Positions 9,470 to 63,244 of a stretch of DNA of 64,000 nucleotides are shown one piece after another. The notes beneath the pieces were generated by a model. That model had not been told where the DNA came from. It did not search any database and saw only the letters and a program-made list of their open reading frames with translations. A program made the translations under genes and the position numbers. Location of the stretch: positions 21,979 through 85,978 of the forward strand of contig CAKQGH010000004.1 of the NCBI GenBank assembly GCA_934232895.1, written 5' to 3'. This DNA comes from an uncultured Alphaproteobacteria bacterium (lineage in GTDB: Bacteria > Pseudomonadota > Alphaproteobacteria > Rs-D84). Numbering within the stretch: position 1 is the first letter of the stretch; the number at the start of each line of letters is the position of its first letter.

Positions 9470-9775
9470 AATACCACTACCCCGCCCGCTTATGCGGGCA
9501 CCCCTTCGCTGGGCGAAGGGGACGACGGGGGCTCAGAATACATAATAAAAAAAATTGTCATTCCTACGTAGGCAGGAATAGGATCTTGAAAATTACTCTC
9601 ATTCGTTGTTGCACAATGTTCAATAAAAATGGGTTGATACCAATATTACCGTATTCCGCAATATTCTGTGTTTGGCTCGTTGTCACTCGCACTGTATAGT
9701 CCCTATTCCTGCCTACGCAGGAATGACAACATGGCAAGTGCGCCGAATGGCGCACTTCATTGCTCTCTGCTCTCT
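9470..9775. repeat. Repeat mosaic 1 (nested palindromic units; contains MITE copy 1)
   Basis: Units CCACTACC-hairpin-CACCCCTTCGC-N-GCGAAGGGGA and GCGCC-N-GGCGC + TTCATTGCTCTCTGCTCTCT recur at 30.3-30.9 kb, 38.76 kb, 46.7-47.2 kb and 56.4-57.1 kb. Confidence 0.8.
9555..9729. mobile_element. MITE-like element, copy 1 (~175 bp, ~27-bp terminal inverted repeats)
   Basis: TIRs TTGTCATTCCTACGTAGGCAGGAATAGG and CCTATTCCTGCCTACGCAGGAATGACAA. The interior is ~80% identical by eye to 56653-56830. No coding capacity. Confidence 0.7.
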
Positions 9776-18600: not shown

Positions 18601-20738
18601 AGTGTTAAATCATCGGTATCGGCAACCAATACACCGTTTGTACGATCCGGCGTGCCATCGGCCAATATGCCACCGGCCAAATCAACTTTGTCCGCCGTGA
18701 CCGACGCACCACGCAACACCAATGTGCCGGTTGCGTTGTTGGACAATGTGCCACCAATTACCGTTGTTCCCGCAGAAATATCAATGCGGCCACCATCTGT
18801 CACCGACAAATTGCCAGAAACATTAAATCTCTGGTCCCCGGCGGTTGCGACATCCGTCGCACCAAATTGCAAAACGCCCCGGCCCGACGCAAAAACATCG
18901 GCACCAACATCAATTTGCGCGGCATCAAAACGAATCGTGCGTGACAGCGCGGTGTCGCTTGCATGCACGCCACCACCAACCGAAATATTTTCGTCCGAAT
19001 GAATGGTCAACGCGCCCGTTTGCACATCAACCTTCAAATCGCCAACCTCCGCATCACCCGATGCGGCGTTTACATCACCCGCAATTATAATGGTATCTGA
19101 TACCGAGAATTTTTGTGTGGTTCCCCCAATGTTCAACGCACCATTTTCCCCAACCACAACCGTACCATTTGCACGGATTACACCATCCAGCGACGACAAC
19201 GACATATCCATATTGCCGCCATTTACCAGCATGGCACCATTGATTGTCATATTGTTGGTGGCATCGAATTTCATTTTCCCCGCATTGGTTGTCAATGCGC
19301 CAGTTGTTATATCATATCCCGAAACATTCATCTGGCCACTGTTATTTGTGACATTACCCAATAATTTGACAGTGTTAGAAACACCAGTACCACCAGTAAT
19401 TTGCAATAATTTCCCAGAGTTAACTACACCATCTGATATACTTACATTCGCCCCACTTAATGTAGTGTCTTGCCCTGCCGAGTTATTTACCGCCGATGCC
19501 GACAAAGTGCCACCGGCTGTAATATCTACCTTGCCGGTTGTACCGGACGTCGTTATCCCATCGGCAGTTATATCGCGGGCCGCCCCAATCGTCAATGTTC
19601 CGGCATTCATAACGGTACCCGTCTTGATATCAAGCGCGGACTGCAAGACCATATCCGAGCTGTTATCTATTAATGCCAATGTGATATTACCATTCGTGGC
19701 ATCTTTTGTTGTCAACTTGAATGTACCATTGGCATTATGCCACTCTAAATCCTGGGGCACACCAAAATCAATGGTTCCGGTTGACAAATCAAAACCGTTC
19801 GCGTTCGCAAAACTGATGCCATTTGCGAATTTCGTTGCGCCCGACACATAACCAGTAAACGTTCCACCGGTCAATGCCAACGACTTGTCTGCATCCAAGC
19901 CACCATTTACAGTTAAATTTTTGGCATTGATGGTCAGTGCGCCATTATCACTGGTGATGCGACCACCAGAAATAATATTGCCATTTGCCGCCGCCAAGTT
20001 TAATTCAGTCCCTGAATTTTTAACATCACCCGTGGTGTTGATATTACTGGCCATGATTGTCATTTTACCGGCCGCATTACCATTGCCAATTTCGCCCGCG
20101 GTAATCGTACCGTTTGTCGCCGTCACATCTGCGGTGCCCGTGCCACTATAATTCAACGCGGCGGTCACATCTATGTTGCCTGTCGATGTAATTGTTGCGG
20201 TTGCGCCACTTGCATCAATTGAATTCGCCTGAATACTATTTGCCGATAATGTTAAATCGGATGCCGCGGTCAACGCCCCATTCAATGTTAAACTGTTCAC
20301 ATTTGATATGCTCAGCGCGCCATTTGCGGTGATTGTGTTGGCGGTGCTGGTACCAATCACGACATCTATCGCCGCAACCGATGAGGCATTGTGAATTTGC
20401 AATTTATACCCAGATGCAATTTCCAAATCCCCAGCGATATTTAATTTGCCACCCGTTAAAATCGAAAATGGTGAATCAATTCCAATCAGCGCATACACAT
20501 TGCCATCTGTACCAGATGTCCCCGTGTTATCACGCCCAATATACATATTGCCCGCAACCGTCAGCGGCCCCGACGACGAAATACCATTACCATTCGTAAT
20601 TATAACATTTTCGCCCGCGGTACTGTTGCCCGGCAACCCCGACAAGTCGGCAGAATTACCCGTACCTGGTGTGAAATCGGCGGCGCCCGCACCAAACGGC
20701 ACCAGGCAGCACAAGAAAGAAACTAATTTTTTCATCAT
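15684..20738 (-). CDS. Large type V autotransporter (1684 aa) with a Gly/Thr/Asn/Ala-rich beta-helical passenger
   Basis: Signal peptide MMKKLVSFLCCLVPFGAGAA. About 1250 aa of degenerate GxxTxxG/NxxG repeats. C-terminal ~300-aa beta-barrel translocator ending ...LHNIKISGSYRF. Confidence 0.85.
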   Translation of the reverse strand: MMKKLVSFLCCLVPFGAGAADFTPGTGNSADLSGLPGNSTAGENVIITNGNGISSSGPLTVAGNMYIGRDNTGTSGTDGNVYALIGIDSPFSILTGGKLNIAGDLEIASGYKLQIHNASSVAAIDVVIGTSTANTITANGALSISNVNSLTLNGALTAASDLTLSANSIQANSIDASGATATITSTGNIDVTAALNYSGTGTADVTATNGTITAGEIGNGNAAGKMTIMASNINTTGDVKNSGTELNLAAANGNIISGGRITSDNGALTINAKNLTVNGGLDADKSLALTGGTFTGYVSGATKFANGISFANANGFDLSTGTIDFGVPQDLEWHNANGTFKLTTKDATNGNITLALIDNSSDMVLQSALDIKTGTVMNAGTLTIGAARDITADGITTSGTTGKVDITAGGTLSASAVNNSAGQDTTLSGANVSISDGVVNSGKLLQITGGTGVSNTVKLLGNVTNNSGQMNVSGYDITTGALTTNAGKMKFDATNNMTINGAMLVNGGNMDMSLSSLDGVIRANGTVVVGENGALNIGGTTQKFSVSDTIIIAGDVNAASGDAEVGDLKVDVQTGALTIHSDENISVGGGVHASDTALSRTIRFDAAQIDVGADVFASGRGVLQFGATDVATAGDQRFNVSGNLSVTDGGRIDISAGTTVIGGTLSNNATGTLVLRGASVTADKVDLAGGILADGTPDRTNGVLVADTDDLTLTTTTDDILVGGDIITKDKKLTLKSAAAANITGKLETESSTSEIDITAAGDVELGDDIINYNGATVEISAAHIDAADSAVTNNANATMVLGGANTESVTTGNITNSGVLKITGTSVTANAIVANDGAMDITAPNVDAHSITVNGGAINTTANNITVTDAITITGDLNHVLTSGATTNGFNIIGSNATAMVQAGDLTVSGALNANANSVGYVLSGNATVDGGINVASGATTSLYASSITAGGVTNAGNLMLSATSGADLGNVVVNSGMLTLNSNTATAASVIMSGLNIVAGNAELRGNGITVNGDFKAGILYQNYNGDITVRGTDVNIIANDYTINANSVSVAGIDQTGGNLNLNTSNLEVRGAIETNGNLLTISARDYNSISAEITGDISGGVRFNNLGDLIVRGDYIFDNNSRLVVAGGPISALHWSTISLADDNTFGQISNNVENLALVKITGEFKSQVSLANLASGTGLIGVGLTELPDISKALWLAHADGGISELDGLDKLRNVSVAICNASGTMCYTYFDPADLADASDIAGAYLTVRNGNDIYIVFDDRFGGPIKISKIQPIVERVPGYSPDAAVSAGALDNLIAGLQQKNGFSGTQAIELLPLIFRGAGLGTMGDELYKRLENYDEYRNGAGLERFSQLFQAREIEQIAGNVALNEHTNARSFEDRMFDEFIWNRNRKLKKAWVDTDFGMLYQKTTDGLHADGNRFSVSGGFDWQHSQTVIYGLTARVSHMSTDTASALDLAYNATNDYIAGHIDTSVADTNIGMGGYMMKILGDKTRLYGTAFLDLHLFDVSRNQTYVDGEITGNGSAFSLTSEWGLLHDWLNQYIVGNMYVRAGYNTGFSVTEKVGGHDYMKMESDGYLMLTPGYSLMAQKRIYPSMWFQIRPYASIGIEYDVLGAPDTAKYKFAAADSFTEYDLNIDPMWANIGGGVEFVSATGIQVGLDYRYQYNQDIQLHNIKISGSYRF

Positions 20739-28815: not shown

Positions 28816-30132
28816 TTACATCGCCTGCATTTTGCTGACGGAGAAATCCAATTTCTTCGTCTTGCCCGAAACAACATTCATCGGCAATGCAATGTCTTTG
28901 AGAGCCTCCTCAATCGATGTCGTGCCACTGGCAACGCTGGTTCCCGTTGTGGTTGTGGTACCGGTGATTTTGGTCGTGGTCGATATGTCATCCGCCATCA
29001 CCTGGTCTGCAACCACCGCATCAGAAACCTGCATCTGTTGCTCAAGGGCTTTTTTTAATTCTTCATTGACCTCTGGTCTTGTGTACTTTTCTGCAAGGTT
29101 TGATGTTTGTTTCGTCTCGGTTTTGGTTTCTGTCGTATCTGGGACCATTTTGTTCAATGCCGTTAACATATTTTTTGCATTGGCCGCATCGTATGTGTTA
29201 TTGCATGCTTTCAAGACACTCTTTTGTATATTGGACAATGTATCGGGCGCCGTGCGATATATTTCCAGGCATTTTTTGAATTGAATATCCGACGAGCACC
29301 CATAACACTCATACATCATATCGCTTGAATATGTTTTTGTCGCTGATGTAATCTTTTGTGTGTCTTGCTTTTCAACACACCATTTTTTGTTTTTATCCCA
29401 AACCATATTATTCTTGCCACAATCCATACAGATTCCCGTTTTATCTGGACCTTGGGTTTCTGTTTCTGGGCAATATTCACACTTTTGTAAAAACGTATTG
29501 AAAATATAATCCGTCCCAGTGCATGTGACGCATTTGCCGTTGGCGTCCAATCCCTTGGTCAGCCCCGTGCAAGAATCATCGGATTTTGTTTCTTCCTTTG
29601 GTTTCTCGGGCTCTGTGGCTTGCTTTTTCGGTGTATCGTCTTTCTTTGCGGTGGTTTTTGGTGTTTCCTGTTTCACGGCGGTGCATTTGCCACCACTAAC
29701 AACCTGGCCACTGGGGCATGATGTTGGTACTGTGCAATCGCCCTCAACTGTACCGCATATTGTCACGGTCTCTGTATATTCACATGTGCCACCGCCAACG
29801 GATTTTGTCTTTTTCGTACTGCTTTTTTCCCAATTCTTGCCCTCTACAAACGTTCCTTGTTTGCCACCTTCGCCCTTTACACCATCACAGCACCAAAAGT
29901 GGCGGTTATTATGTTCAAAATCATCATGATGTGCCAATTCGTGCACGGTGTTTCTCTTTGCGGCTTTGTTGCCTTTACACGAGTGTATCTGATAACCGCA
30001 CAACCAATATTCGTCGTTGCCCTTGTCTTCAACCCAGCATTCACTCTGATACCCCGTATAGAAATCGGCCCAGACCGGGCATATAACCAATGCACAAATC
30101 ATAACCAGAAAAATTTTACGCAGCATATTCAT
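28816..30132 (-). CDS. Secreted CXXC-rich protein (VSP/furin-repeat-like Cys spacing), downstream of inverton 1
   Basis: Signal peptide MNMLRKIFLVMICALVICPVWA. Many Cys, including CVTC, CEYC, CMDC, CYGC and CPSGQVVSGGKC. Lys/Thr/Glu-rich linker. GGGGGA RBS. Confidence 0.7.
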   Translation of the reverse strand: MNMLRKIFLVMICALVICPVWADFYTGYQSECWVEDKGNDEYWLCGYQIHSCKGNKAAKRNTVHELAHHDDFEHNNRHFWCCDGVKGEGGKQGTFVEGKNWEKSSTKKTKSVGGGTCEYTETVTICGTVEGDCTVPTSCPSGQVVSGGKCTAVKQETPKTTAKKDDTPKKQATEPEKPKEETKSDDSCTGLTKGLDANGKCVTCTGTDYIFNTFLQKCEYCPETETQGPDKTGICMDCGKNNMVWDKNKKWCVEKQDTQKITSATKTYSSDMMYECYGCSSDIQFKKCLEIYRTAPDTLSNIQKSVLKACNNTYDAANAKNMLTALNKMVPDTTETKTETKQTSNLAEKYTRPEVNEELKKALEQQMQVSDAVVADQVMADDISTTTKITGTTTTTGTSVASGTTSIEEALKDIALPMNVVSGKTKKLDFSVSKMQAM

Positions 30133-30160: not shown

Positions 30161-30276
30161 TTGCCGAAAAAAACGGTGGTTTTTTGCGCAATAAATACCA
30201 CTTGACCTGATGGCGGATTTCTGGGTATAATTTCCGTATAAAAGTGCCGAAATTAAACCACCGTTTTTTTCGGCAC
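30161..30276. promoter_or_regulatory. Putative invertible promoter element 1 (promoter currently facing away from gene 28816..30132: OFF)
   Basis: Perfect 20-bp IR GCCGAAAAAAACGGTGGTTT (30163-30182) / AAACCACCGTTTTTTTCGGC (30255-30274). Interior promoter on the + strand: TTGACC (30202-30207), 18 nt, TATAAT (30226-30231). The interior is homologous to element 2 only when reverse-complemented. Confidence 0.6.
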
Positions 30277-30294
30277 TTCTTTTTTTGCGCCGCG

Positions 30295-30327
30295 CCCCGC
30301 CCACCGCGGCATTGCGGGGATTTTTTG
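30295..30327 (+). terminator. Hairpin plus T-run on the outer flank of inverton 1
   Basis: CCCCGC-CCACCGCGGCATT-GCGGGG-ATTTTTTG. Conserved at 56362-56392. Confidence 0.5.
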
Positions 30328-30329
30328 TG

Positions 30330-30860
30330 TTTTTTATTTGTCCCTGCGGGGCAATGGACCCCGACCTTCGTCGGGGTGACGGTCTTTTTTATTCTTAAAA
30401 CTTTATCACTCTATCACTGATGCGCTGCCGACACCCCGCCCTGCGTGCACCCCGACTTCCCAGAGGTGAACTTGACTTGCAACGAGAACGTAGCAAGTTC
30501 TCCTCCTGTGGAGGAGTACCGCGTAGCGGGGAGGTGGTCTTTTTATTTGTCCCTGCGGGGCAATAGATACCGGCCTACGCCGGTATGACGGAAGTTTTGT
30601 GGTTGATTACCAAATTTTACGAGTGTTGTTCGGCTGTAGGTGATTTATTATAGTCGTCACCCCGACACCCGGGTCCCACAAAATTGAAAATTTTGTGGGT
30701 GGTACCAGGCCGGGGGCCATTGCCCCGCAGGGACTTATTTACCACTACCCCGGCACTTCGTGCCACCCCTTCGCTTGGCGAAGGGGAATTTAGACCACAA
30801 CGGGAATGAAACAAGTGCGCCATCGGCGCGCTATCTATTCTCTATTATCTATTCTCTATG
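30330..30860. repeat. Repeat mosaic 2 (largest cluster of nested palindromic units)
   Basis: TTATTTGTCCCTGCGGGGCAATGGACCCCGACCTTCGTCGGGGTGAC, CCCACAAAATTGAAAATTTTGTGGG, CACCCCTTCGCTTGGCGAAGGGG and CTATCTATTCTCTATTATCTATTCTCTATGCTCT units all recur elsewhere in the window. Confidence 0.8.
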
Positions 30861-30892
30861 CTCTGAAAAACCGCCCCGGGATGGGGCGGTTT

Positions 30893-40863: not shown

Positions 40864-42678
40864 ATGAAGTCAAGGAACGGATTCTTTGCAATTATTATTT
40901 GTTTGGCCATATTTTGCCGTACGGCGATGGCCGGCGATTGCAGCGATACAAAATACCGTGGAAACAATCCGATTGAATGCCAATTTTTCATTGATGGCGC
41001 AACATCATTTTTTGGCACGGCGGGACTGGTCGGCGGCGCATTGGCGCTGGTTGGCATATCTATGTCGGGCGGTGGCGACAATGGTACCGCGGGCCCGTCA
41101 CAACCTACATTGACCGTGCCCGCCTATGTCGGCGATGACATCAGTGCCGCAGAACTGGCCGGTGTTATGCAAAACGCATCGTACGCCCGCAATATGGACC
41201 AATATAATAATATCCGCCTGGCGTGGTCACTGGCGCGCGGATACACCGGGCGCGGCACAACAATCGCGGTACTAGACGCCGGGGCCGACACATGGCACGG
41301 GAAAACCGTGGCATCATTTGCGTCGGGCGCAATTGCCCCAGACGTCAATGTTGTGCAATATAAAATCGTTGATGAAAATATGAAATTTTTATCATACCGC
41401 GAAATAGGCAACGCAATTGCCAGCGCAACGGAGGCAAATGTATATAATTCCAGTTGGGCCGTGTCAATGTCCGCAACCAGCTTAACATCGCGCGCGCAAC
41501 TGGAACGCGTGACCGACAAACATTTTGTTGATGAAATATCCGCCGCCGCGCGCACGCGCGACGCCATATTTGTGTGGGCGGCCGGGAACGATGGGCTGTC
41601 CCAATCCAGTGCCCTGTCCGCCATGCCCCGCGTTATTCCCGAATTAAATGGCCATTTTGTAAATGTTGTTGCGTTTGACGATGCAACGGGGGCGCTGGCC
41701 GATTACAGCAACGCATGCGGCATCACGCGTGATTGGTGCATAACCGCGCCGGGGTCACTGCACACCGATTACACGACGGCCCATGGCACCAGTTTTGCCG
41801 CCCCGGTTGTATCGGCGGCAATCGCCGTTTTGCGCCAGGCATTTCCATATATGACCGCATCACAAATAACATCACTGTTGTTCGAAACCGCGCGCGATCT
41901 GGGGGCACCCGGGGTTGACGATGTATATGGTCACGGTATGTTGGATTTGGAACGCGCAACCCGCCCCGTTGGCGCCGCATTGGTACCAATTGGCGGCACA
42001 ATGCAACCGTTGGCCGTGGCACGCGTATCGGGGCAAATTGCACATAATATAAAATCCGCCAATCCGCAATTTGCATTCTTTGATGAATACGGCCGCGCAT
42101 TTTCAGCGGACATATCCGAAAATATCACCATTCAAAACCAGTCCCAGGCGTGGCGGCATCTGCACGGAAATGACGACATTGTGGCCACGGCCGCGGGCAA
42201 TTTTGAATTTGGGTTCCGCGACATGGATTTTTTACCGGCCGACGGCCTGTTCGGCATTGGCGATAAAAATTTCATCAGTTTTGTATCCACCGCCCGCCAA
42301 TGGAAATTGGACAACATAACATTATTTCAAACGGCATCGGTTGGTATGGGCCGCCCACATACGAACGACAATTCGATGATTACCGATATTTCCGGAATAA
42401 CAACCGCATCGGCGGCAATTGGCGCACGCGGCCGCGATTGGCAATTTGCACTGCGCATACCAGACACAATTATTTCCGGCAATATGACCATGCACACCCC
42501 GGTTGGTCGCATGGCAGACGGCGCCATTGTGTACAATGATTATACCATAGATTTATCGGCCACCCGTCCGTCGGTTGAATTCACCGCCAAATATAAATTT
42601 TTAACCGCCGGATTTGTTGATAACCCATACGGCACCGATGAATTATTCGTTGTCGGCCGTTGGAACATACGATTCTAG
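40864..42678 (+). CDS. S8 (subtilisin-like) serine peptidase, secreted, with a beta-rich C-terminal domain ending in Phe
   Basis: Signal peptide MKSRNGFFAIIICLAIFCRTAMA. Catalytic D (IAVLDAGAD), H (WHGKTVASF), S (HGTSFAAPVVSAA). C-terminus ...LFVVGRWNIRF suggests an autotransporter or OMP-like anchor. Confidence 0.8.
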   Translation: MKSRNGFFAIIICLAIFCRTAMAGDCSDTKYRGNNPIECQFFIDGATSFFGTAGLVGGALALVGISMSGGGDNGTAGPSQPTLTVPAYVGDDISAAELAGVMQNASYARNMDQYNNIRLAWSLARGYTGRGTTIAVLDAGADTWHGKTVASFASGAIAPDVNVVQYKIVDENMKFLSYREIGNAIASATEANVYNSSWAVSMSATSLTSRAQLERVTDKHFVDEISAAARTRDAIFVWAAGNDGLSQSSALSAMPRVIPELNGHFVNVVAFDDATGALADYSNACGITRDWCITAPGSLHTDYTTAHGTSFAAPVVSAAIAVLRQAFPYMTASQITSLLFETARDLGAPGVDDVYGHGMLDLERATRPVGAALVPIGGTMQPLAVARVSGQIAHNIKSANPQFAFFDEYGRAFSADISENITIQNQSQAWRHLHGNDDIVATAAGNFEFGFRDMDFLPADGLFGIGDKNFISFVSTARQWKLDNITLFQTASVGMGRPHTNDNSMITDISGITTASAAIGARGRDWQFALRIPDTIISGNMTMHTPVGRMADGAIVYNDYTIDLSATRPSVEFTAKYKFLTAGFVDNPYGTDELFVVGRWNIRF

Positions 42679-43284
42679 GTATTCGGCATGCAACCGGTGC
42701 CGTATTTTCAAAAACCGATTTAATGTATCGCGATGCACGCCCAGGCGCCGTGCAATTTTTGATTTGGCGCGCCCGTCACACAATTTTTGCAATATATATT
42801 CCTCGCGGCTTATCAGTTTTGACATACTTTTACTGCCCGTGGGGCGCCCAATGCGCCCACCCTGGGACCGCACACGGGCCAACGCCTCTTTGGTGCGCTG
42901 GGATATTAAATTTCGTTCGATTTCCGCAGACAACCCAAATGCAAAAGCCAAAACCTTGCTGGTAATATCCGAGCCCAATCGATAATTATCTTTGATTGTC
43001 CAAATTTTTGCGCCAACATCCATACAGTGATGCAAAATACTCATTACCTGCAACAAATTTCGGCCCAAACGCGACAATTCCGATGCTATTATCATATCGT
43101 CTTTGCGCAATTGTTGCAGCAATCGCCCCAGTTTACGTTTTGATAATTCCTTGGTTGATGAAATTGTTTCTTCTATCCAGCAATCTATGATTAAATCCTG
43201 TTTTTTACAAAATCGCTCTATTTCAAAATGTTGATTTTCTGTTGTCTGGTGATCGGTGGAAACGCGAACATACCCGTATATCAC
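42643..43284 (-). CDS. Serine site-specific recombinase (resolvase/invertase family, Hin/Gin-like size)
   Basis: MIYGYVRVSTDHQTTENQ holds the catalytic Ser. SRLGRN and ERNLISQRTKEALA are present. C-terminal HTH (GRAKSKIARRLGVHRDTLNRFLK). AAGGAG RBS. The last 36 nt overlap the 3' end of the convergent S8 gene. Confidence 0.85.
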   Translation of the reverse strand: MIYGYVRVSTDHQTTENQHFEIERFCKKQDLIIDCWIEETISSTKELSKRKLGRLLQQLRKDDMIIASELSRLGRNLLQVMSILHHCMDVGAKIWTIKDNYRLGSDITSKVLAFAFGLSAEIERNLISQRTKEALARVRSQGGRIGRPTGSKSMSKLISREEYILQKLCDGRAKSKIARRLGVHRDTLNRFLKIRHRLHAEYLESYVPTADNE

Positions 43285-43472: not shown

Positions 43473-44345
43473 TTACATCAAATCAAATTTAGTAATGTAA
43501 TTGAACGAAACACCCAGCATAAAATTGCTGCCGTATACATCGGCACCGCGCGCCTTGGCCAAACGATATTTCAAATACGGTCCCATGGTTAAATCGCCCC
43601 ACAAATTAGTATCCAGACGCAACACAGCGTTCAAATCGCGTTTCAGGTCGGTTTTCACATAATCAGAATAGTTAAAATATTCACGATAATAACCACTGGT
43701 AGATATTTTCACCCCATCACGCACGGTATATTCGGCGCGCCATCCGGCCTCGGCACCGGTTTTGCTGGTTTGTTCGCCGGCGTATGTGAAATCATATTCG
43801 TACAGCCCCGTCACATACAGGCTTTTCAATATTTTATGGTCAAACAGCGATAAACCGCCACTGGCACGGATAATATTCTGGCGCGGTGCATCGGGATTAT
43901 CGCGAAATTGGGTATCGTATGCGCCACGAACCGTCGGACCAAATTTTAACCCACCAAATTCCCAGCACGCGTATGACAAATCACTGGATGCGATGATTTT
44001 ATCGGCATTTTGGTCGGTTGTGGTTGGGCCATCATACGGGCGCAATGTTGTTTTACCGTATTCCGCATACAGACCGTTATCCCATTTGAATTTGTTTTTA
44101 TTGTATTCCAAAACGGTATCAAACACGCCCTTGATATAATCCTGGCTGGATGCATTCAGGGCCGACACCGGAGAATCTGCATATTCACGGGCATTTTTTA
44201 CCGATGTTTTGGATAATTCCAAACCTATGCGGCGAATGTCCAGTTTTAACGACGGCGCCCCCGCATCCGTCGCGGCATCATCCGCACGCGATGCACACGG
44301 CATTAAAACAATGGCAATCAACCCTGCTAGCAATATCTTGTTCAT
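43473..44345 (-). CDS. DUF3078-like outer-membrane beta-barrel protein
   Basis: Signal peptide MNKILLAGLIAIVLMPCASRA. Alternating beta-strand pattern with LSYACWEFGGLKFGPTVRGAYDTQF and GLYEYDFTY. Ends ...GVSFNYITKFDLM. Confidence 0.6.
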   Translation of the reverse strand: MNKILLAGLIAIVLMPCASRADDAATDAGAPSLKLDIRRIGLELSKTSVKNAREYADSPVSALNASSQDYIKGVFDTVLEYNKNKFKWDNGLYAEYGKTTLRPYDGPTTTDQNADKIIASSDLSYACWEFGGLKFGPTVRGAYDTQFRDNPDAPRQNIIRASGGLSLFDHKILKSLYVTGLYEYDFTYAGEQTSKTGAEAGWRAEYTVRDGVKISTSGYYREYFNYSDYVKTDLKRDLNAVLRLDTNLWGDLTMGPYLKYRLAKARGADVYGSNFMLGVSFNYITKFDLM

Positions 44346-44360
44346 ATTTTCACCCCACGA

Positions 44361-44984
44361 CTATTTTGAAATTCGCAACACACCATTGTCATCGGCATAT
44401 TTCCACCCGGCCGCGCGCAATGCGGCGGTGAATTCACCACGGGTCGCCACCGGCAATTCAATCGTAGCCGTGGTGGCATCAATGTATTTGGTTGCCAAAT
44501 CTATTTTTTCGGCACGCGCAATTTCCTGTAAATTTGCCCAGTTTGCAATCGGGTCGGTCATATTTGCAACAACCGTAAATTTATCACCCCCCGATGACGC
44601 CGGCATCCAGTTTTGCACGCCCGTCGCATTCATCCAATTTGTTGCCGCCGCATTATCAATAACCATGGTGATATTTGCGGAATATGTTGTATCAGATTGT
44701 TGTTCCCCAGAAATATTGGTTGCCCCAATCAGATTCATTAAGTCGGCATTCGTCGCCGCACCAATTGCATCGCGCAATTGATCAGGCATAGAATATTGCG
44801 ACAATTTTTCAAACAGAATTTGACGACGCGCCTCGTCCATGGCAATGGTCTTGGCCGCGGCGGCGGTTTCACTGGTAATATTTACCGATGCCGTACCCGA
44901 CAACGGCGCGGCATTCGCCGCGGTTGCCATAACGCCAACCAGTCCACAAATCGCGCACAAAAATTTTGACATAACACCCATCAT
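44361..44984 (-). CDS. Secreted/periplasmic protein of unknown function
   Basis: Signal peptide (M)SKFLCAICGLVGVMATAANA. 1-nt start/stop overlap with the upstream OMP gene. The start may instead be 44972. Confidence 0.6.
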   Translation of the reverse strand: MMGVMSKFLCAICGLVGVMATAANAAPLSGTASVNITSETAAAAKTIAMDEARRQILFEKLSQYSMPDQLRDAIGAATNADLMNLIGATNISGEQQSDTTYSANITMVIDNAAATNWMNATGVQNWMPASSGGDKFTVVANMTDPIANWANLQEIARAEKIDLATKYIDATTATIELPVATRGEFTAALRAAGWKYADDNGVLRISK

Positions 44985-46483
44985 TAAAACTTTGCGTTGA
45001 TTCCAACACGAATTCCCATGGATTTATAGAACGATTTAACCTCGTTTTCCGCCGTACAGGTCCAACCACTGCACTGCGATTCCAAATCCTTGATATTTAT
45101 CGCAACCGGGTCGCCGTTTGTTGGATCCAAAATGTCATCCAAACTTTTACCGGCCTCGGTCCACGCCTTTTCACGCGCCGCATACAACGAATCGTAATAC
45201 GAACCGTTCAGGTATGTTTTTGCCTCGGCATCGCTGACGGTATAGTAATCGTATGTCAGTCCCACCGACAACGACACTGTATTTGTTATTGCGGTCACCC
45301 AATTTGTCCCAAAACCCAGGTGCAGACCACTAGCCATACCCGCACTGTCTTCCACACTTTTTGGATGTGCCCAATCCAAACGATATGGCTGGTCACCCGT
45401 GGCGGTATACCCCGGCAGTCCCAATTCCACACGTCCATTGATGGAATTATTTTGGTTTATTGTGTAATCCATATCCAATGCAACATACGGGCCCGACCAT
45501 TCAACCTCGTACGAATGGGATGTGCCCGGTTGTTCATAGTAATATGAACCCTCGCTGCTTATCCATTCGGCGCCGGACGCCACTTGCATTTGGCCGGTTA
45601 AACTGTCGCGCCAGATAATCTGTTGCTGGCCATCCGACAAATGAATAACAATTGCCGGGTCACATTGAATTTCGTCACTGCCATCAACCCGGAAACATGC
45701 CGCCGTATCAACCGACAGACCATAATTATTTTTCGTTTCCAGTTTATATTTCAAATACCGATACCCAATCGACGGCGTGATTTTCACATTGCCCCACTTG
45801 AAAAAGTCGGTCAATCCAAACCCGATATTAAATCCCATCATATTGCCGCCACTGCTGGTGCCAACAGATAACGCGTGCCCAATTTGGTTGCCAATGATGT
45901 TGTCGCTGCTGTCAACCCAGGTGGTGACCAAATATCCGCCATTGGTAATATCGTCGTCGACCATGGAACTGTCGCCAGATTGAATACCGTATCTAAATCC
46001 GGCATCAATTTGCATCTTGGTATTGCCACCAAACACATATCCGCCGCGCATATCCAACACATTCCACCCAATATTGTCATAGTGCAATATTGATGCGGAC
46101 TGCTTCATTTCAAATTGCCACTGGGCAAATTCGTGTGAAATGCCGGCATCAACCCAAAATCCTTGTTTTTTCCCGGTATTATTTGCGGTGTTCGCACTGT
46201 TTGTGGTGCGCGCATATTGTGTTTGCGTGGTGCGCGTGCCAACAACCGGCCGCGTTGACGAGTATGACGAAAAATTACCACTGTTGCTGTACCCGGTGTT
46301 ATAATTTCTGGACTGCGTATTTGTGTTGTAATTGCTGTATCCGCGTTGGGCGTATGTTTGGGTGTTATATCGTGACTGGGGCGATTGATAATTGCCATTA
46401 TAATATGTGCCCGCCGCATTGGCCGCAACCGGAGCAAACGCAACCAGCGATGCCCGCAACAAAAATCGTGGTAATTTTGTCAT
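44984..46483 (-). CDS. Outer-membrane beta-barrel protein with an N-terminal Asn/Gln/Tyr/Ser-rich low-complexity region (possibly omptin-like)
   Basis: Signal peptide MTKLPRFLLRASLVAFAPVAANA. ~90-aa region YYNGNYQSPQSRYNTQTYAQRGYSNYNTNTQSRNYNTGYSNSGNFSSYSS. Barrel ending ...GIRVGINAKF. Asp-rich MVDDDITNGGY loop. Confidence 0.6.
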   Translation of the reverse strand: MTKLPRFLLRASLVAFAPVAANAAGTYYNGNYQSPQSRYNTQTYAQRGYSNYNTNTQSRNYNTGYSNSGNFSSYSSTRPVVGTRTTQTQYARTTNSANTANNTGKKQGFWVDAGISHEFAQWQFEMKQSASILHYDNIGWNVLDMRGGYVFGGNTKMQIDAGFRYGIQSGDSSMVDDDITNGGYLVTTWVDSSDNIIGNQIGHALSVGTSSGGNMMGFNIGFGLTDFFKWGNVKITPSIGYRYLKYKLETKNNYGLSVDTAACFRVDGSDEIQCDPAIVIHLSDGQQQIIWRDSLTGQMQVASGAEWISSEGSYYYEQPGTSHSYEVEWSGPYVALDMDYTINQNNSINGRVELGLPGYTATGDQPYRLDWAHPKSVEDSAGMASGLHLGFGTNWVTAITNTVSLSVGLTYDYYTVSDAEAKTYLNGSYYDSLYAAREKAWTEAGKSLDDILDPTNGDPVAINIKDLESQCSGWTCTAENEVKSFYKSMGIRVGINAKF

Positions 46484-46680: not shown

Positions 46681-47165
46681 GTTCAGAGTTCAAAGTGAAA
46701 AGTTCAAAGAACGTGTCCGCATCCGCGGACAACACCAATAACCTGGATTCCGGGGTCAAGCCCCGGAATGACACCTATGAGGAGGTCCGCAACCAAGACC
46801 TAAACTATGTTCATAAAATAAAAATCAGTATTCCGCCTTTGTCATCCCGGTGCTTGTCCGGGCCCCACAAAATCGTCAGATTTTGTGGGTGGTTCCCGAA
46901 GGGGAACTTAGTACCTTCTTTACTCTTGTTATCTCGTAGTGCGCTAGGCTATTTCCATAACCGTCACCCCGACGAAGGTCGGGGTCCATTGCCCCGCAGG
47001 GACTTATTTACCACTACCCCGGCACTTCGTGCCACCCCTTCGCTAGCGAAGGGGAATTCATCCCACGACGGGGATGAAACAAGCGCGCCGGATGGCGCGT
47101 TTCATTGCTCTCTGCTCTTTGCTCTCTCTGTCGGAGCGTCAGCGGAGACGGATGAACTTTATTAA
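46681..47165. repeat. Repeat mosaic 4
   Basis: The first ~185 bp (46681-46866) is an inverted copy of 56861-57046. The remainder contains GTCACCCCGACGAAGGTCGGGGTCCATTGCCCCGCAGGGAC, CACCCCTTCGCTAGCGAAGGGG and GCGCGCCGGATGGCGCG+TTTCATTGCTCTCTGCTCT units. Confidence 0.8.
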
Positions 47166-47224: not shown

Positions 47225-50200
47225 ATGAAAGGATTCAGACTAATTTTCGCGCTGTTCCTTGGGCTGTGGGCGTTTCAGCCTGCCCGGGCGGCTGATTCTG
47301 ATGACACTGCGCGCGCCGCAACGCGCCGCGGTGCGTCGTCTGTTGTTGCCGCCGCACGTGGAAATTCAACCGCCACCGCCCCACAATCGACAACCGGCAC
47401 GTCCCGCATCACAAACGCAACCAACAATAAATCAACCACAACAAATTCGAACCAAACCGTGCGTGGCCGGGGCACGGCAACAACGACAACTACGCGCGGC
47501 ACAAATGTTGTGGCGGACACTAGTCGCACCGCAACCACCCGCAAAACGGTATCAACCCGCACCACATCGGGCACCCAAACCCGTGGCGCGGCCAGCACCA
47601 ATGTCATTTCGGCGCCATCGCGTGCGGCAATCGTTCGCGGTACAATCGGCGCGCCCAAAGCAACCACATCTGTGTCGCAATCGTCGGGGGCCGCATCACG
47701 CGCATCTGTATCGCGCGCCGCCACAACCACCGCCGCGCGCGCGTCAACCACATCATCGGCGCGGCGCACAACCGGCGCATCGTCACGCGTGGCGCGTGCC
47801 GCAACCACAACAAACACCGTTGACAGTGTTATCAATTCAAACTATAAAAAATGCCGCGAGGTTTATTACAATTGCATGGATGAATTCTGTGCGAACAAGG
47901 ACAGCCAATTAAAGCGCTGTGCATGTTCGTCACGCGTGAATGAATTTGACAGCACCAAAAAGCGTCTGGCCAATGTCGAAGAAAAAATGTTGGATTTCAA
48001 CCAGCGCCTGTTGACCGTAAATATGGACAAGGAAGACGCCGCCGCATTAAACCAGGCGACCGAGGGCGAAACCGCATTCCTGCAAAAGGACACATCGAAA
48101 TCCAAACAAATGCTGGACGATATTTCCAAAAAATTGAACGCCAGTTTTAATGACACCAATTTCAACCAATCAATGACATCTATATCATTGTCGTTGGATA
48201 CCGATTCGGCGTTTGACACGGTCGATTCATTACAGGCCGCATCAACCACGGCCAAAACCGGCATGGCGTTGTATTCGGCCGCCCTGCCCATCTGTCGCGA
48301 AATGGCGACCGAGGTTTGTTCCGACGACGAATTATCTTTGGCCGAAAGTGGTTATCAAATGGTTATCGAACAGGATTGCAATGCGGTTCAAAAATCGTAC
48401 CAGACCCAGGTTGACCAGGCCCGTGACAAAGTACGCGAGGGCAGCGCCCTGTTGGATATGTCGCGCTTGGATGTGTACCAGGAACGCAATTCCGACGATA
48501 TTTTGACATGCAAAGAAAAAATGTTGACCATGTTGACCGATTCAACCGTATGCGGCGACGGGTTGGGCAAATGTCTGGATACAACTGGGCAATACATTGA
48601 CCCATCCACGGGCGAGGCTTTGCTGTCCGATAAATTGGTCAATTTGGCAAACCTGATTGTGCGGCCATCTGCCGACCAAGAATGGACATCGGTACCCGCA
48701 AACCAGGTGTTTGTCACATATCTGAATTCCAAGAAAACATTTTTGGCCCCTGCAATGGAAAATTGCCAGGACATTGCCGACGCCGTATGGGATGCATTTA
48801 TCGAGGACGCATTGGCGCAAATTAAATTGGCGCAAACAAAAAAATTGGAAGATGTCCGCCAAAGCTGTACCACATTGACCACGCAATGTTTGACCGACAC
48901 CACCAAAACAATCCAGGATTTTGACGCGCGTGCGTTATCTACATTTGGTGTATTGGCGGATAAAACCGTAAATGAAATGTGTGCCAGCATCAAAAACGCT
49001 TGCACCGCGGTGTTGAACTATTCTGTCACGGGGGACGCAGAAACAGACTCTGAATGGACCGCCGGTATGAACGACATCGCCACCGACAAAACATACGATA
49101 CTTTGATGCAAACATGCCGCGAGGTTGGCCGTGCATGCATTATCCAGGCATGTAAATCTGTATCGGGCAACTTTGGCCTGTGCGAAGATATTCAAACATC
49201 GGTCAACCGTAAATCAATTATCAATCGTACAGCCTGCTGGGACGAGGTTCAAAAATGCATTGAACAAACGGGCGACGCCTCCATCAAGGCCATATTCGCA
49301 CGTAAATCCGACCCAAACCCAAACGAAACCAAAACCAAAACAGATACCGTGTTCGCCAACCAACAAGAAGGGTATAAATTTTATAGCAAGCTGTATAACA
49401 ATCTCGACGAAACCGAAACGTGTTCAGCGGACACAACTGATAACAACGGGTCACCAGCAGAATGCGGAGTATACGATTTGTGCAGAATATCTTGCAAAAA
49501 TTCAGATTCCACAGAATGTATGAAATGTCGTTTGACCGAACGCATTTGGGGCAACTGCGAATTTTCACCAGAAGCATCATTATCACAATCATACAGTCAT
49601 AACTATATCAAGACCAGTTTCCGGAATTCAGATGACGAAACATTGTTGTCCTGGTTTGCAAAAAATACAAACACCAACAACAATCCAGAGTCATGTCGCG
49701 ATACATCATGTCCCCCAGGGCAACAATTGCACGATGGAGTATGTGTGGATAAATCAACATTGACAGATGACGATGTATTCTGTCCGCCCGAAAAATTCTG
49801 GCAGATAAACATAAAAACAGAGGGAACCGACAAACATACGGATGGTATCATAACCAACTGTTGCAACGTTGATGATACCAACGCGGGTCAAAAGGATGTG
49901 TTTGGGAATTGTTGCCTGGACAATATAATTGATGGCCTGCCCGGCGGCGACGACACCACAGATAATAGCAAAACAAGCTTTTTCTTGAGGGGGACCTCGG
50001 ACAAGTCTATGACATTTGGCGAGAAATCTAGTGGCACCCGTGTTACGACACTTGACAGTAAAAAAACACCACACGGACTGTGCCTGCCAAGCACTTCTCG
50101 TTTGGTTGCCAAGTATCAAAAAGCCAATGACAATGCGTATGTTTATGTGATATGCACTAGTGGCGCCCCGAACCCATCAGATGGCCCAAACACCACAACA

Positions 50201-50596
50201 ACAAAAAATTACCCAGATGGTCAAAAATTAACCTGCACGAATGGCGAATATGTATACGTGGTCGTCACAGACAGGACGCCGGACGGAGGCAACACACAGG
50301 CATACTTTTATAGTGGCCGGTATCTGTCCCCAACTTACACCATGGATCAAGACGGAAAAAACACTACCAACCACAGCGTTGGTACAAGCCCAGCACAGTC
50401 TTACAAAGCATCCTCGACACAGCAATGTAACTTGACTTACCCCAAAGGAACAGATCTTGATCTTGGTAAAATTGTCGCAGAATGGAACGCCCCGCAAACA
50501 TCGACCGACGAAGGTGTATCATCACAAGACACCACAGGGTGCACCGCCGGTAAAAAAGACATGCCGTGGCGTTGGATCATTGGCAAAAAAGAATAA
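47225..50596 (+). CDS. Large secreted protein (1123 aa): Thr/Arg/Ser/Ala-rich disordered N-region, conserved Cys-motif domain, Cys-rich C-terminal half
   Basis: Signal peptide MKGFRLIFALFLGLWAFQPARA. ~190-aa low-complexity tract. CREVYYNCMDEFCANKDSQLKRCACSSRV motif shared with 12924..13946. Numerous Cys later (CMKC, CRDTSCPPGQQLHDGVCVD...). Confidence 0.75.
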   Translation: MKGFRLIFALFLGLWAFQPARAADSDDTARAATRRGASSVVAAARGNSTATAPQSTTGTSRITNATNNKSTTTNSNQTVRGRGTATTTTTRGTNVVADTSRTATTRKTVSTRTTSGTQTRGAASTNVISAPSRAAIVRGTIGAPKATTSVSQSSGAASRASVSRAATTTAARASTTSSARRTTGASSRVARAATTTNTVDSVINSNYKKCREVYYNCMDEFCANKDSQLKRCACSSRVNEFDSTKKRLANVEEKMLDFNQRLLTVNMDKEDAAALNQATEGETAFLQKDTSKSKQMLDDISKKLNASFNDTNFNQSMTSISLSLDTDSAFDTVDSLQAASTTAKTGMALYSAALPICREMATEVCSDDELSLAESGYQMVIEQDCNAVQKSYQTQVDQARDKVREGSALLDMSRLDVYQERNSDDILTCKEKMLTMLTDSTVCGDGLGKCLDTTGQYIDPSTGEALLSDKLVNLANLIVRPSADQEWTSVPANQVFVTYLNSKKTFLAPAMENCQDIADAVWDAFIEDALAQIKLAQTKKLEDVRQSCTTLTTQCLTDTTKTIQDFDARALSTFGVLADKTVNEMCASIKNACTAVLNYSVTGDAETDSEWTAGMNDIATDKTYDTLMQTCREVGRACIIQACKSVSGNFGLCEDIQTSVNRKSIINRTACWDEVQKCIEQTGDASIKAIFARKSDPNPNETKTKTDTVFANQQEGYKFYSKLYNNLDETETCSADTTDNNGSPAECGVYDLCRISCKNSDSTECMKCRLTERIWGNCEFSPEASLSQSYSHNYIKTSFRNSDDETLLSWFAKNTNTNNNPESCRDTSCPPGQQLHDGVCVDKSTLTDDDVFCPPEKFWQINIKTEGTDKHTDGIITNCCNVDDTNAGQKDVFGNCCLDNIIDGLPGGDDTTDNSKTSFFLRGTSDKSMTFGEKSSGTRVTTLDSKKTPHGLCLPSTSRLVAKYQKANDNAYVYVICTSGAPNPSDGPNTTTTKNYPDGQKLTCTNGEYVYVVVTDRTPDGGNTQAYFYSGRYLSPTYTMDQDGKNTTNHSVGTSPAQSYKASSTQQCNLTYPKGTDLDLGKIVAEWNAPQTSTDEGVSSQDTTGCTAGKKDMPWRWIIGKKE

Positions 50597-55200: not shown

Positions 55201-56211
55201 CTATTTCCACGCCGCCGGAATATCCGCATAGTCCGACAACCCGGTTGCACCGCTATACATACCACCAACTTGTGCTGTTGTTGCATACGGGAATACATTA
55301 TAAAGTGGTGTCCCATCTGGGTTTCGCGCCGATGGTCCGGTCAGTCCACTGCATCCAGCAAATGTGTAGGCAAACATACCGTAAGCGGAGGGACCAGATA
55401 TGCCCGCAAATAGCCCCGCGGGGATTTCACCGGTCAAACCACTGCAATCATAAAATGTGTAACTATACATATTATCCGCTGGGACGCCTTCATCAATGCC
55501 AGCAAATAAATCTGCGGGGATTTGACCCGTCAGATTTCCGCACCCATAAAATGTATGAACGAAAATCGGCATACTTGTGCCAACATTCGGAAATATCCGT
55601 CCCAGGCTACCGGAAATGCCTGCCAAGTTCTGATTCTTATCAAATGCTATTACAGGACTATCAAAATTGCTACCATACCCCGTTGCGCGGCCACCAATAC
55701 GGATGTCGTATGCGCCGGCGGTGGCGTATGTGTGGCTGATGGTCTGGTCACCTGTCGCGGGTTTTATTACTTTCTGCATCGCCGTGCCATCACCCCAGTT
55801 TATATAGAAAGAACCTGCCGCGCTGATACTAAAACTGAACGTTGTGGTGTCCGATGTTGTGGTTGCCGTAAAGTGGTATTTCGGTTTTATCAATGTGCGT
55901 ACGGCCTTGATACTGGTGTTCACATTTGCCGCAAAACCCGTCGCATATTCACTGTGCTGGTAATCGGTTTTGGTGCCAACCTTGCTGTTTGCGGCATCTA
56001 TCACCGCAAACAAGTATCGCATATTTGCCGGTGCCGACGGACGTCCGGACACAATTGGAATGTTTATTCCCCATTCGTGTTCAATCAGATTATGGACATA
56101 CCGCAGGTTTACCATTGGCGACATACCGGGCGCGTCTGCACCGTGTGCCGCACCAAACACCAGTGTAAATGTGCACATCACCGACAGTAATATTCTGCGT
56201 AATTTGGTCAT
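55201..56211 (-). CDS. Secreted BspA-type (DUF285-like) leucine-rich-repeat surface protein, downstream of inverton 2
   Basis: Signal peptide MTKLRRILLSVMCTFTLVFGAAHG. Repeats FYGCGNLTGQIPADLFAGI / FYDCSGLTGEIPAGLFAGI / FAGCSGLTG. The ORF-track extension to 56505 runs through the promoter switch and is rejected. Confidence 0.7.
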   Translation of the reverse strand: MTKLRRILLSVMCTFTLVFGAAHGADAPGMSPMVNLRYVHNLIEHEWGINIPIVSGRPSAPANMRYLFAVIDAANSKVGTKTDYQHSEYATGFAANVNTSIKAVRTLIKPKYHFTATTTSDTTTFSFSISAAGSFYINWGDGTAMQKVIKPATGDQTISHTYATAGAYDIRIGGRATGYGSNFDSPVIAFDKNQNLAGISGSLGRIFPNVGTSMPIFVHTFYGCGNLTGQIPADLFAGIDEGVPADNMYSYTFYDCSGLTGEIPAGLFAGISGPSAYGMFAYTFAGCSGLTGPSARNPDGTPLYNVFPYATTAQVGGMYSGATGLSDYADIPAAWK

Positions 56212-56230
56212 TCCCCATTTCCCCCACATT

Positions 56231-56341
56231 GCGCAAAAAACGGTGGTTTTTTGCGGCATATTTTTATTGTGTAATAATAGCCGTTTTCTGCGGTTTCTGT
56301 CAACCGGATAACGCATAATAAAAACCACCGTTTTTTTCGGC
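56231..56341. promoter_or_regulatory. Putative invertible promoter element 2 (promoter currently facing gene 55201..56211: ON)
   Basis: 17-bp IR AAAAAACGGTGGTTTTT (56235-56251) / AAAAACCACCGTTTTTT (56320-56336). Interior promoter on the minus strand: TTGACA (comp. 56298-56303), 18 nt, TATTAT (comp. 56274-56279). The outer flank is near-identical to that of element 1. Confidence 0.6.
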
Positions 56342-56361
56342 ACTTCTTTTTTGGCGCCGCG

Positions 56362-56392
56362 CCCCACCCACCGCGGCATCGCGGGGATTTTT
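56362..56392 (+). terminator. Hairpin plus T-run on the outer flank of inverton 2
   Basis: CCCCAC-CCACCGCGGCATC-GCGGGG-ATTTTTG. Paralog of 30295-30327. Confidence 0.45.
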
Positions 56393-56399
56393 GTGGAGT

Positions 56400-57105
56400 T
56401 TTTTTTATTTGTCCCTGCGGGGCAATGGACCCCGACCTTCGTCGGGGTGACGACGATAAAATCATAAATCACCCGCCCCCGAACAATATTCGTAAAATTT
56501 GGCAATCAACCATAAAACTCTCGTCATACCGGCGTAGGCCGGTATCCATTGCCCCGCGGGGACATATTTACCACTACCGCGTATGCGGACACCCCTTCGC
56601 CAGCGAAGGGGAATTCACCCCGCGACAGAGATACAGAACACAGCATAAAAAGAATTGTCATTCCTGCGTAGGCAGGAATAGGGACTTGGAAATTACTCTC
56701 GCTTGGTGTTGTACAATATTTGGTAAAAAAGCGAATATCAATATTACCGCATTCCGCGATATTCTGTATTTGGCTCGTTGCCACTCGCACTGTATGGACC
56801 ATATTCCCGCCTGCGCGGGAATGACAATTGAGTGCTCGCGTTGCTCGCTGCATTTTTATGACCTGGATCCCGGGGGCAAGCCCCGGGATGACAAAGGCGG
56901 TATACTGATTTTTTTTATGAACGTAGTTTAGGTCTTGGTTGCGAACCTTTTCATAGGTGTCATCCCGGTGCTTGACACCGGGATCTAGGTATATAGTGTT
57001 GTCCGCCAACGGCGGACACATCCTTTGAACTCTGAACTCTGAACTTTTTAGCAGCGCGCCATTGGCGCGCTATCTATTCTCTATTATCTATTCTCTATGC
57101 TCTAA
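56400..57105. repeat. Repeat mosaic 5 (contains MITE copy 2 and an inverted copy of 46681-46866)
   Basis: Shares TTATTTGTCCCTGCGGGGCAATGGACCCCGACCTTCGTCGGGGTGAC, CACCCCTTCGCCAGCGAAGGGG and CTATCTATTCTCTATTATCTATTCTCTATGCTCT units with the other mosaics. Confidence 0.8.
56653..56830. mobile_element. MITE-like element, copy 2
   Basis: TIRs AATTGTCATTCCTGCGTAGGCAGGAATAGGG and ATATTCCCGCCTGCGCGGGAATGACAATTG. Interior is collinear with 9555-9729. Confidence 0.7.
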
Positions 57106-57133
57106 ATAAAACCGCCCCATGGGGCGGTTTTAT

Positions 57134-62948: not shown

Positions 62949-63244
62949 ACGAAATATTGTTTCAAAAACGACCGTTTGTGTAATAACCAGTGGTCAGTAT
63001 TTTTGCAGCAACGGAAAAATGTCTGAAATCCGTTATAATCGAGACATTTTTTGTTGTAGAATAATATTGTTTGAATATCAAAAAACAGTTGATTTAAACG
63101 GTCATTTAAAATGACAGAAATTTTCAACCAGACAATTTACAGTCTGCCGTCAACGGATAAAAGTTTCTATTCCTGTTCACATAAATGGTCGTGCATATTA
63201 CGAAACGGTGTGTTATAATCAACAACGGAACAAAAGGAAAAAAT

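Follow-up and report, generated by a model that had tools for sequence, protein, structure and literature searches.

A probable promoter switch of the master-invertase type upstream of a secreted-protein gene in an uncultured gut alphaproteobacterium

In the stretch of contig CAKQGH010000004.1 analysed here (64 kb in total, hereafter the window), a promoter motif located at 56.2 kb is enclosed by two inverted repeats and points at a gene for a secreted or surface protein, and the question raised by this locus is whether the promoter is a fixed element or a switch that is turned around by a recombinase. Judging from the sequence of the window and of related contigs, we consider it probable that the segment is an invertible promoter (inverton) flipped by a serine recombinase that belongs to the master DNA invertase (Mpi) family. 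The features of an Mpi regulon that were found are an Mpi-family gene, dispersed repeats that share a consensus and lie remote from this gene (with further copies in related metagenome-assembled genomes, MAGs, and contigs), and a promoter motif enclosed by the repeats. Named homologues and a genome scan place the window in uncultured gut Alphaproteobacteria.

Direct reading of the sequence bore out the coordinates of the 17-bp inverted repeat that had been proposed for this site, which surrounds 68 bp. The gene-proximal arm, i.e. one putative crossover site, occupies 56235-56251 (AAAAAACGGTGGTTTTT, to be read as AAAAAA-CGGTGG-TTTTT) and is contained in the quasi-palindrome TGCGC-A6-CGGTGG-T6-GCGGCA (~56230-56258); its sequence is unchanged at the orthologous loci L004, L001, and L006. 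The outer arm (56320-56336) is the exact reverse complement of the first (17 of 17 positions), and its outer half-site runs on as ...TTTTTTTCGGCAC up to 56343. A consensus scan of the interior (56252-56319, minus strand) identified TTGACA-18-TATTAT on the minus strand at 56303..56274, which matches the sigma-70 consensus at 11 of 12 positions (-35 TTGACA, 56303-56298; 18-nt spacer; -10 TATTAT, 56279-56274). As the original prediction had stated, this promoter is aimed at a signal-peptide gene on its left (55201-56211, minus strand; ATG at 56209-56211), and the switch (copy 2) is thus in the ON orientation in the window. The inner flank between arm and gene (56212-56234, minus strand) forms a conserved leader with a purine-rich ribosome-binding region, GCGCAATGTGGGGGAAATGGGGA, ahead of the ATG, and it is near-identical in L001 and L006, where it lies upstream of different genes.

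A search of the window for the 16-mer core of the arms, allowing at most 2 mismatches, gave five matches where 0.19 are expected, and none of 100 shuffled sequences reached five. Four of these matches are arms, one pair at 56.2 kb and a second pair at 30.2 kb. The fifth (62964-62979, 2 mismatches) was considered as a third switch and rejected: it has no partner arm and looks like a chance match. An Rfam scan of the window returned four tRNAs only and no RNA family overlapping the switch.

The arms at 30.2 kb (30169-30184 and 30253-30268, the outer one with 2 mismatches) delimit a paralogous switch, copy 1 (30168-30270, plus strand; interior 30186-30252), for which the consensus scan placed the promoter, TTGACC-18-TATAAT (11/12), at 30202..30231 of the plus strand. 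This promoter faces away from the minus-strand gene on its left, and copy 1 is therefore OFF. The gene in question (28816-30132) encodes a 438-aa Cys-rich secreted protein that starts with MNMLRKIFLVMICALVICPVWAD and is unrelated to the 336-aa product controlled by copy 2, which upholds the earlier view that two unrelated genes are placed under one switch design. The copies are alike in repeat core, in the 84-bp core-to-core spacing, and in the 18-nt promoter spacer; the identity of the spacers had also been predicted, and it holds for promoter matches lying on opposite strands. When all arms are aligned from the outside to the inside, they read (T)GCCG or GCGC, A6-8, CGGTGG, T3-7, and (C)GGCA(C/T), so that every site is a quasi-palindrome, and the cores of each copy lie 82-85 bp apart, i.e. 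approximately eight helical turns. A quasi-palindromic site would fit the layout expected for binding by a recombinase dimer, and the constant spacing and flanking A-tracts hint that helical phasing and bending may matter for synapsis.

A candidate invertase is encoded in the same window, 12-13 kb from both switches, which are themselves 26 kb apart (30.2 and 56.3 kb). The gene (42643-43284, minus strand) specifies a 213-aa serine recombinase that contains a resolvase catalytic domain (PF00239, 7e-32) and matches the NCBIfam model NF009949, 'master DNA invertase Mpi family serine-type recombinase', with 299.9 bits (E = 8.5e-90), the curated equivalog cut-off of this model being 272 bits. Its closest solved structure in PDB is that of the Gin invertase, a modest similarity restricted to the catalytic domain (E = 4e-13). 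Its putative catalytic Ser is residue 9-10, in the motif YVRVST. The identical protein is present on 60 contigs, the longest of them 803 kb, thousands of homologues are 70-83% identical to it, and several homologues in Alphaproteobacteria MAGs have already been named as Mpi family members by NCBI. Among the 50 window open reading frames (ORFs) scanned, no other site-specific recombinase and no tyrosine recombinase or phage-integrase-type domain was found.

The evidence for inversion comes from related loci. A two-arm scan of metagenomes with the pattern AAAACGGTGGTTTT-N50-80-AAACCACCGTTTT returned seven loci, six of which represent one locus from six different assemblies; the same scan of viral contigs gave no match. 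The six contigs fall into two states of three contigs each (L007, L009, and L010 in state A; L011, L012, and L013 in state B) that share the same flanks on both sides and differ by the exact inversion of a 79-bp interior, which is reverse-complemented at 79 of 79 positions. A switch of the same design is thus seen in both orientations at one locus in relatives. The outer half-sites are fixed in both states (A8 before the left core and A6 before the right core), whereas the inner halves, TTTAGATTCGGCAT and TTTTTTTCCGACG, exchange sides, indicating that strand exchange was confined to CGGTGGTTT and excluding re-insertion of a mobile cassette. The left flank of L010 (state A) is closest to that of L013 (state B), with 72 differences compared with ~275 to the other state A contigs, and the right flank of L009 (state A) is closest to that of L011 (state B). 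Orientation is therefore incongruent with the flank haplotypes, and flipping has been recurrent.

Two readings without inversion were weighed against these data. In the first, the module would be a miniature inverted-repeat transposable element (MITE)-like cassette with terminal inverted repeats and an outward promoter, and the two orientations would reflect independent insertions. The genome is indeed rich in small repeated elements, and the module (flank, repeats, promoter, and leader) precedes unrelated genes; re-insertion, however, would carry whole termini, in conflict with the unchanged outer halves and flanks of L007 and L011, the cassette has neither a target-site duplication nor a transposase, and the changes of orientation recur on different flank haplotypes. 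We regard this explanation as highly improbable. In the second, the repeats would be static RNA or DNA structures (a terminator, attenuator, or operator) around a fixed promoter. Each arm can fold into an A/U-rich hairpin, flagged as terminator-like, and the long-range stem folds better than shuffled sequences (z = -4.7), but because the promoter lies between the arms each transcript would contain one arm, and the exact inversion at the L007/L011 locus, the constant 84-bp spacing, and the co-resident Mpi-family gene are left unexplained. Hardly any credence attaches to this reading, the least probable of all those considered. Both readings were rejected on account of the retained outer half-sites and the exact inversion between L007 and L011.

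Opposite orientations at different loci were also seen for the type of interior found in copy 1 of the window. This interior ('type A') is ON in L001 and L002 (the orthologous copy-2 locus of a different strain) and OFF in L005 and L006, both from a Hadza MAG, and in copy 1, with conserved outer and inner flanks. The interiors of L001 and L006 gave an alignment score of 56 as reverse complements against 1 on the same strand, and copy 1 compared with L001 gave a z value of ~10. The claim of the original prediction that the repeats form a dedicated phase-variation module, rather than chance palindromes, is thus supported by the Mpi-family gene in the window, by the switch of the same design in both orientations, by the inverted homologous interiors at other loci, and by the terminator-like hairpin and T-run that the conserved outer flank presents to an OFF-state promoter.

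Other features of the related loci were recorded. The L007/L011 switch (approximately 4530-4628 in L007) lies between two divergent genes for small Cys-containing secreted proteins; the switch is 100% conserved, and the two signal-peptide genes flanking it differ by 4-48% between samples in a mosaic manner. This switch works as a toggle between the two genes. In L005 (CAKQNS010000012.1, a 10.5-kb contig), the stored locus stops at 2400-2500, within the switch, in the A-run just before the core of the second arm; if this is the end of the contig, it is a break of the kind expected where reads hold both orientations. L027 contains three core sites at 780-960 (a degenerate CGGTGTG at ~787, CCACCG at 869, and CGGTGG at 953), 82-84 bp apart, with a promoter, TTGAAG-17-TATAAT, between the first two, upstream of a gene for a small secreted protein and a paralogue of the copy-2 family; this arrangement may represent a double switch. 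In L008 (Ga0307928_10194905), an AT-rich sequence from an unrelated organism, the 14-bp core AAAACGGTGGTTTT and its complement surround 73 bp (945-1045), which may be a related inverton elsewhere or a chance pair.

The switches of the window share not only the repeats but also the sequence outside them. The outer flanks 56338-56456 and 30271-30385 are identical at 107 of 119 positions in a gapped alignment (~90%), with a score of 94 compared with -6.2 +/- 4.6 for shuffled sequences. The conserved outer flank described in the original prediction is real to this extent, but its distal half (56398-56452) is a generic repeat of the repetitive extragenic palindrome (REP) type. The switch-specific portion comprises ~60 bp (56337-56397, plus strand), in which a terminator-like hairpin (CCGCGGCATCGCGG, 56371-56384) is followed by T-runs; in the outer flank of copy 1 (30271-30381, plus strand), the corresponding hairpin at 30304-30317 is likewise accompanied by a REP-like repeat. 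The terminator-like site has the same location in either outer flank and lies on the strand that OFF-state transcription would run into. The REP-like repeat of copy 2 (TTATTTGTCCCTGCGGGGCAATGGACCCCGACCTTCGTCGGGGTGACG) is an intergenic hairpin that is not specific to switches; it belongs to family D3, found also at 30327-30381 and 30536-30590, to which family D1 is related. GC-rich intergenic hairpin repeats of this kind form several families, some of them stacked into composite blocks of ~200 bp, and further copies are located at 30707-30775, 46976-47044, and 56536-56604, at 9523-9729 (compared with 56623-56827), and at 30814-30870 (compared with 57053-57109).

Several observations weigh against the interpretation of copy 2 as an active invertible promoter. 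Orientation was called from assembled contigs, which give the majority state, and by these calls copy 2 is ON in the window, L004, L001, and L002, the OFF orientation being found in no assembly. The clustered protein variants of the copy-2 gene, of which there are two, P0001 (5 contigs) and P0121 (1 contig), both read through an interior in the ON orientation. Copy 1 is OFF in all five assemblies (the window, L014, L015, L016, and L005), including strains whose product is only 70-78% identical. With the orientation of each copy constant, each could be heavily biased or locked. At the orthologous copy-2 locus of L001 and L002, the interior is different and the outer arm is degenerate (AAAACGATGGGTTTT), which shows that the cassette turns over. 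In addition, the two interiors in the window are not demonstrable homologues as reverse complements. The original prediction considered them to be reverse complements and proposed a shuffled-sequence alignment as the test; in this test, for which the A/T runs had been removed, the alignment of copy 1 with reverse-complemented copy 2 scored -4, a value reached by 7% of shuffled sequences, and the same-strand alignment scored +2 (9 against 8 in a second comparison). Reverse-complement homology was therefore rejected. The related claim that the promoter is inverted between the copies stands for the hexamers, which lie on opposite strands, but not for the interiors, which are different sequence variants, so that the opposite polarity is read from the hexamer strand alone. 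The folding energy of the terminator-like hairpin is no better than that of shuffled sequences, and the argument for its role as a terminator is thus one of position and conservation. A distance of 84 bp is very short for a serine invertase synapse and would leave no room inside for a Hin-type enhancer. Finally, the Mpi-family protein is tied to these sites by co-occurrence and is a candidate for their enzyme.

The first group of these observations would be accounted for if copy 2 were a fossil, i.e. if the cassettes had spread by Mpi-type inversion and duplication and were now locked, with copy 2 acting as a constitutive promoter and copy 1 silenced. The uniform orientation of both copies (copy 1 even in divergent strains), the degenerate outer arm in L001 and L002, and the 2 mismatches in the outer arm of copy 1 would all be in line with such decay. 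The arms of copy 2 are nevertheless perfect, the Mpi gene is intact and its product 100% conserved on 60 contigs, and the identical design flips in relatives. An OFF promoter that faces a terminator and is conserved between strains, as in copy 1, is also hard to explain unless it can be flipped. Moreover, many invertons are strongly biased, with ~2% reversed reads (PMC11602134), and since assemblies show the majority state, the constant orientations fit strong bias but also a locked cassette. We consider a locked cassette unlikely, although it is the most credible of the alternatives, and we infer that copy 2, as an invertible promoter, continues to flip.

The assignment of the enzyme was weighed in the same manner. 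Inversion might be real and catalysed by another recombinase encoded elsewhere in the genome, e.g. a tyrosine recombinase; the visible portion of the genome is 64 kb, the link between the Mpi-family protein and the sites is their co-occurrence, and master invertases of the serine as well as the tyrosine type occur in Bacteroides (PMC4747536). Against this, the window protein passes the equivalog cut-off of a family named for exactly this role, and the ORFs scanned include no tyrosine recombinase. The quasi-palindrome with its AAAACG-GT-GGTTTT centre also follows the serine-invertase pattern known from hix and gix sites. A different enzyme is improbable, clearly more so than a locked cassette, and the Mpi-family protein remains the candidate. 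At ~84 bp, the flipped segment is much smaller than what is considered comfortable for synapsis by an invertase, and it raises the mechanistic question of how a serine invertase would synapse sites only 84 bp apart.

Under the preferred reading, the Mpi-family recombinase would synapse both sites in trans, cut at the asymmetric centre of CGGTGG, and, after rotation and religation, leave the 68-bp interior flipped. In the ON state, the transcript is predicted to begin near 56267 and to run leftward across the gene-proximal site and the leader (GCGCAATGTGGGGGAAATGGGGA-ATG) into the gene at 55201-56211 (complement). In the OFF state, the promoter would fire outward into the terminator-like hairpin and T-run, giving a short dead-end transcript, which for copy 1 is predicted to be ~80 nt long and to end near 30320; both the transcription start and the terminator function are putative. 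One trans-acting invertase serving many dispersed switches would produce combinatorial phase variation of surface proteins. As a wider and more tentative proposal, for which we claim less than even confidence, the system may be an undescribed Mpi regulon in an abundant clade of uncultured gut Alphaproteobacteria, built on a minimal, enhancer-less serine-invertase switch with a fixed spacing of ~84 bp and A-tract-flanked hix-like sites, which would form a portable cassette with its own terminator and leader that has been copied before many unrelated, fast-evolving secreted-protein genes, sometimes as a two-gene toggle or a three-site double switch. Pairs of the signature TGCCG-A(n)-CGGTGG-T(n), 84 bp apart, allow such a regulon to be enumerated and its ON/OFF ratios to be obtained from metagenomes.

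The product of the gene controlled by copy 2 is a secreted or surface protein of 336 aa that starts with MTKLRRILLSVMCTFTLVFGAAHGADA, has a signal-peptide-like N-terminus, and falls into an uncharacterised family. The original prediction had labelled it a BspA-type leucine-rich repeat (LRR) protein. In Pfam searches at E<=10, neither this protein nor three homologues matched an LRR family, the sole match of the 336-aa protein being a weak PKD-like beta-sandwich signal at ~119-172, and no NCBIfam LRR family matched the 336-aa protein. Its AlphaFold model (AF2, 42 homologues) is confident, with a predicted local distance difference test score (pLDDT) of 90.8, and a Foldseek search of PDB with this model returned nothing at E<=0.001, the 50 best-ranked structures being free of LRR proteins. 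The LRR label was thus rejected, the one reminiscent feature being the motif pattern F..C..LTG.IP. The protein carries C-terminal repeats of ~32 aa (F-x-x-C-x-G-L-T-G-x-I-P-x-x-L-F-x-G-I). The family comprises at least 413 homologues in gut Alphaproteobacteria MAGs, without a Pfam domain. At a paralogue locus (P0008; L017-L026), no switch at all was found, indicating that this gene family is not always switch-controlled. Some relatives (L017, L027, and L006) also encode, immediately upstream, a 65-90-aa secreted protein in which the motif Y-x-V-S-G...V-P-x-P-P-L-P is conserved.

Exact-protein look-ups of the 336-aa product, the 438-aa product, and P0001 gave no match, because gene callers had picked other starts. 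Public gene calls carry the copy-2 ORF upstream through the switch (window 56212-56505, minus strand), giving P0001 (371 aa) and P0121 (392 aa), so that the N-termini in these annotations represent the translation of promoter and repeat DNA. The start of the copy-2 gene is likely the ATG at 56211. Gene calls that run through a switch thus lead to wrong annotated starts for the controlled genes.

The window is chromosomal, encoding PolA, a release factor, HisRS, TyrRS, enolase, Rho, transketolase, RecO, and four tRNAs. Beside the invertase gene, two minus-strand ORFs encode outer-membrane-type proteins (44984-46483 and 43473-44345), the matches being Pom, a Protochlamydia outer membrane protein family that was hit weakly, and DUF3078. 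Neither of two very large ORFs, at 15684-20738 (minus strand, 1684 aa) and 47225-50596 (plus strand, 1123 aa), matched a Pfam domain at E<=0.001, and neither is preceded by a switch core.

Gut Bacteroides are the textbook case of surface diversification through global promoter inversion by a master invertase. The Mpi-type invertible-promoter strategy is thus already known, and the window system works like the Mpi regulon of Bacteroides fragilis, in which Mpi is trans-acting and inverts 13 dispersed promoter regions (PMC4747536, PMC10403206). Shared with B. fragilis Mpi (FinA/Ssr2) are one small, non-adjacent serine recombinase, several dispersed promoter switches, and one repeat consensus (PMC4747536, PMC10403206, PMC3090145). 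The likeness extends to membership of the Mpi equivalog family, to surface or secreted products of a gut bacterium, and to ON and OFF states that are mixed across loci. Unlike B. fragilis, the host here is an uncultured gut alphaproteobacterium and not a member of the Bacteroidales, the targets are single protein genes instead of polysaccharide operons with UpxY/UpxZ, and the switch is accompanied by a conserved, terminator-like outer flank. The repeat core here is AAAAACGGTGGTTTTT, and the flipped segment measures 68 bp (84 bp core to core). In B. fragilis, the flipped segments are roughly 170-230 bp long, and the repeat consensus, ARACGTWCGT, agrees with AAACGGTGGT at 8 of 10 positions, which serves as a lead only.

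Invertases of the Hin/Gin/Cin/Pin group have the same type of serine-recombinase catalytic domain, with Gin as the closest solved structure, and the sites described here resemble their hix and gix sites, which are imperfect palindromes of about 26 bp composed of an A-tract, C/G, a 2-bp asymmetric centre, G/C, and a T-tract. The hixL site is TTCTTGAAAACCAAGGTTTTTGATAA, and the centre of hix and gix is AAACC-NN-GGTTT. With Hin, too, a promoter is flipped for phase variation (PMC4513852, PMC11868660). In Hin-type systems, however, the invertible segment measures 1-3 kb and has the enzyme gene inside or beside it, and a Fis-bound enhancer is needed in cis (PMC4513852), whereas the invertase gene here is 13 kb off and the segment is 84 bp, inside which an enhancer would not fit together with the promoter. 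The remote gene and the lack of room for an enhancer argue that this is not a Hin/Gin-type cassette. The repeats of the B. fragilis invertible promoters were themselves reported to be similar to the hin repeats (Patrick 2003, as related in PMC3090145).

The invertons catalogued by PhaseFinder, PhaVa, and DeepInverton resemble the present switches in having short inverted repeats around a promoter upstream of surface-related genes, and orientation bias is common among them (PMC11602134, PMC11868660); unlike the present analysis, these catalogues were built on reads or isolate genomes. The fimS element of Escherichia coli (FimB/FimE) is likewise an invertible promoter for a surface structure, and its OFF-state transcripts terminate. 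This 314-bp element with 9-bp repeats is served by adjacent tyrosine recombinases and requires IHF and Lrp. In contrast, a tyrosine recombinase was not found among the 50 window ORFs scanned.

In the literature searched, no paper linked an Mpi-type master DNA invertase to Alphaproteobacteria. Compared with the systems above, the new elements are the host clade, the sequence of the repeats, the very short segment that is flipped, the portable flank bearing a terminator-like hairpin, the two-gene toggle of L007, and the possible three-site double switch of L027. The presence of Mpi logic in uncultured gut Alphaproteobacteria as well as in Bacteroides would make it a strategy that is common to gut phyla or has been exchanged between them.

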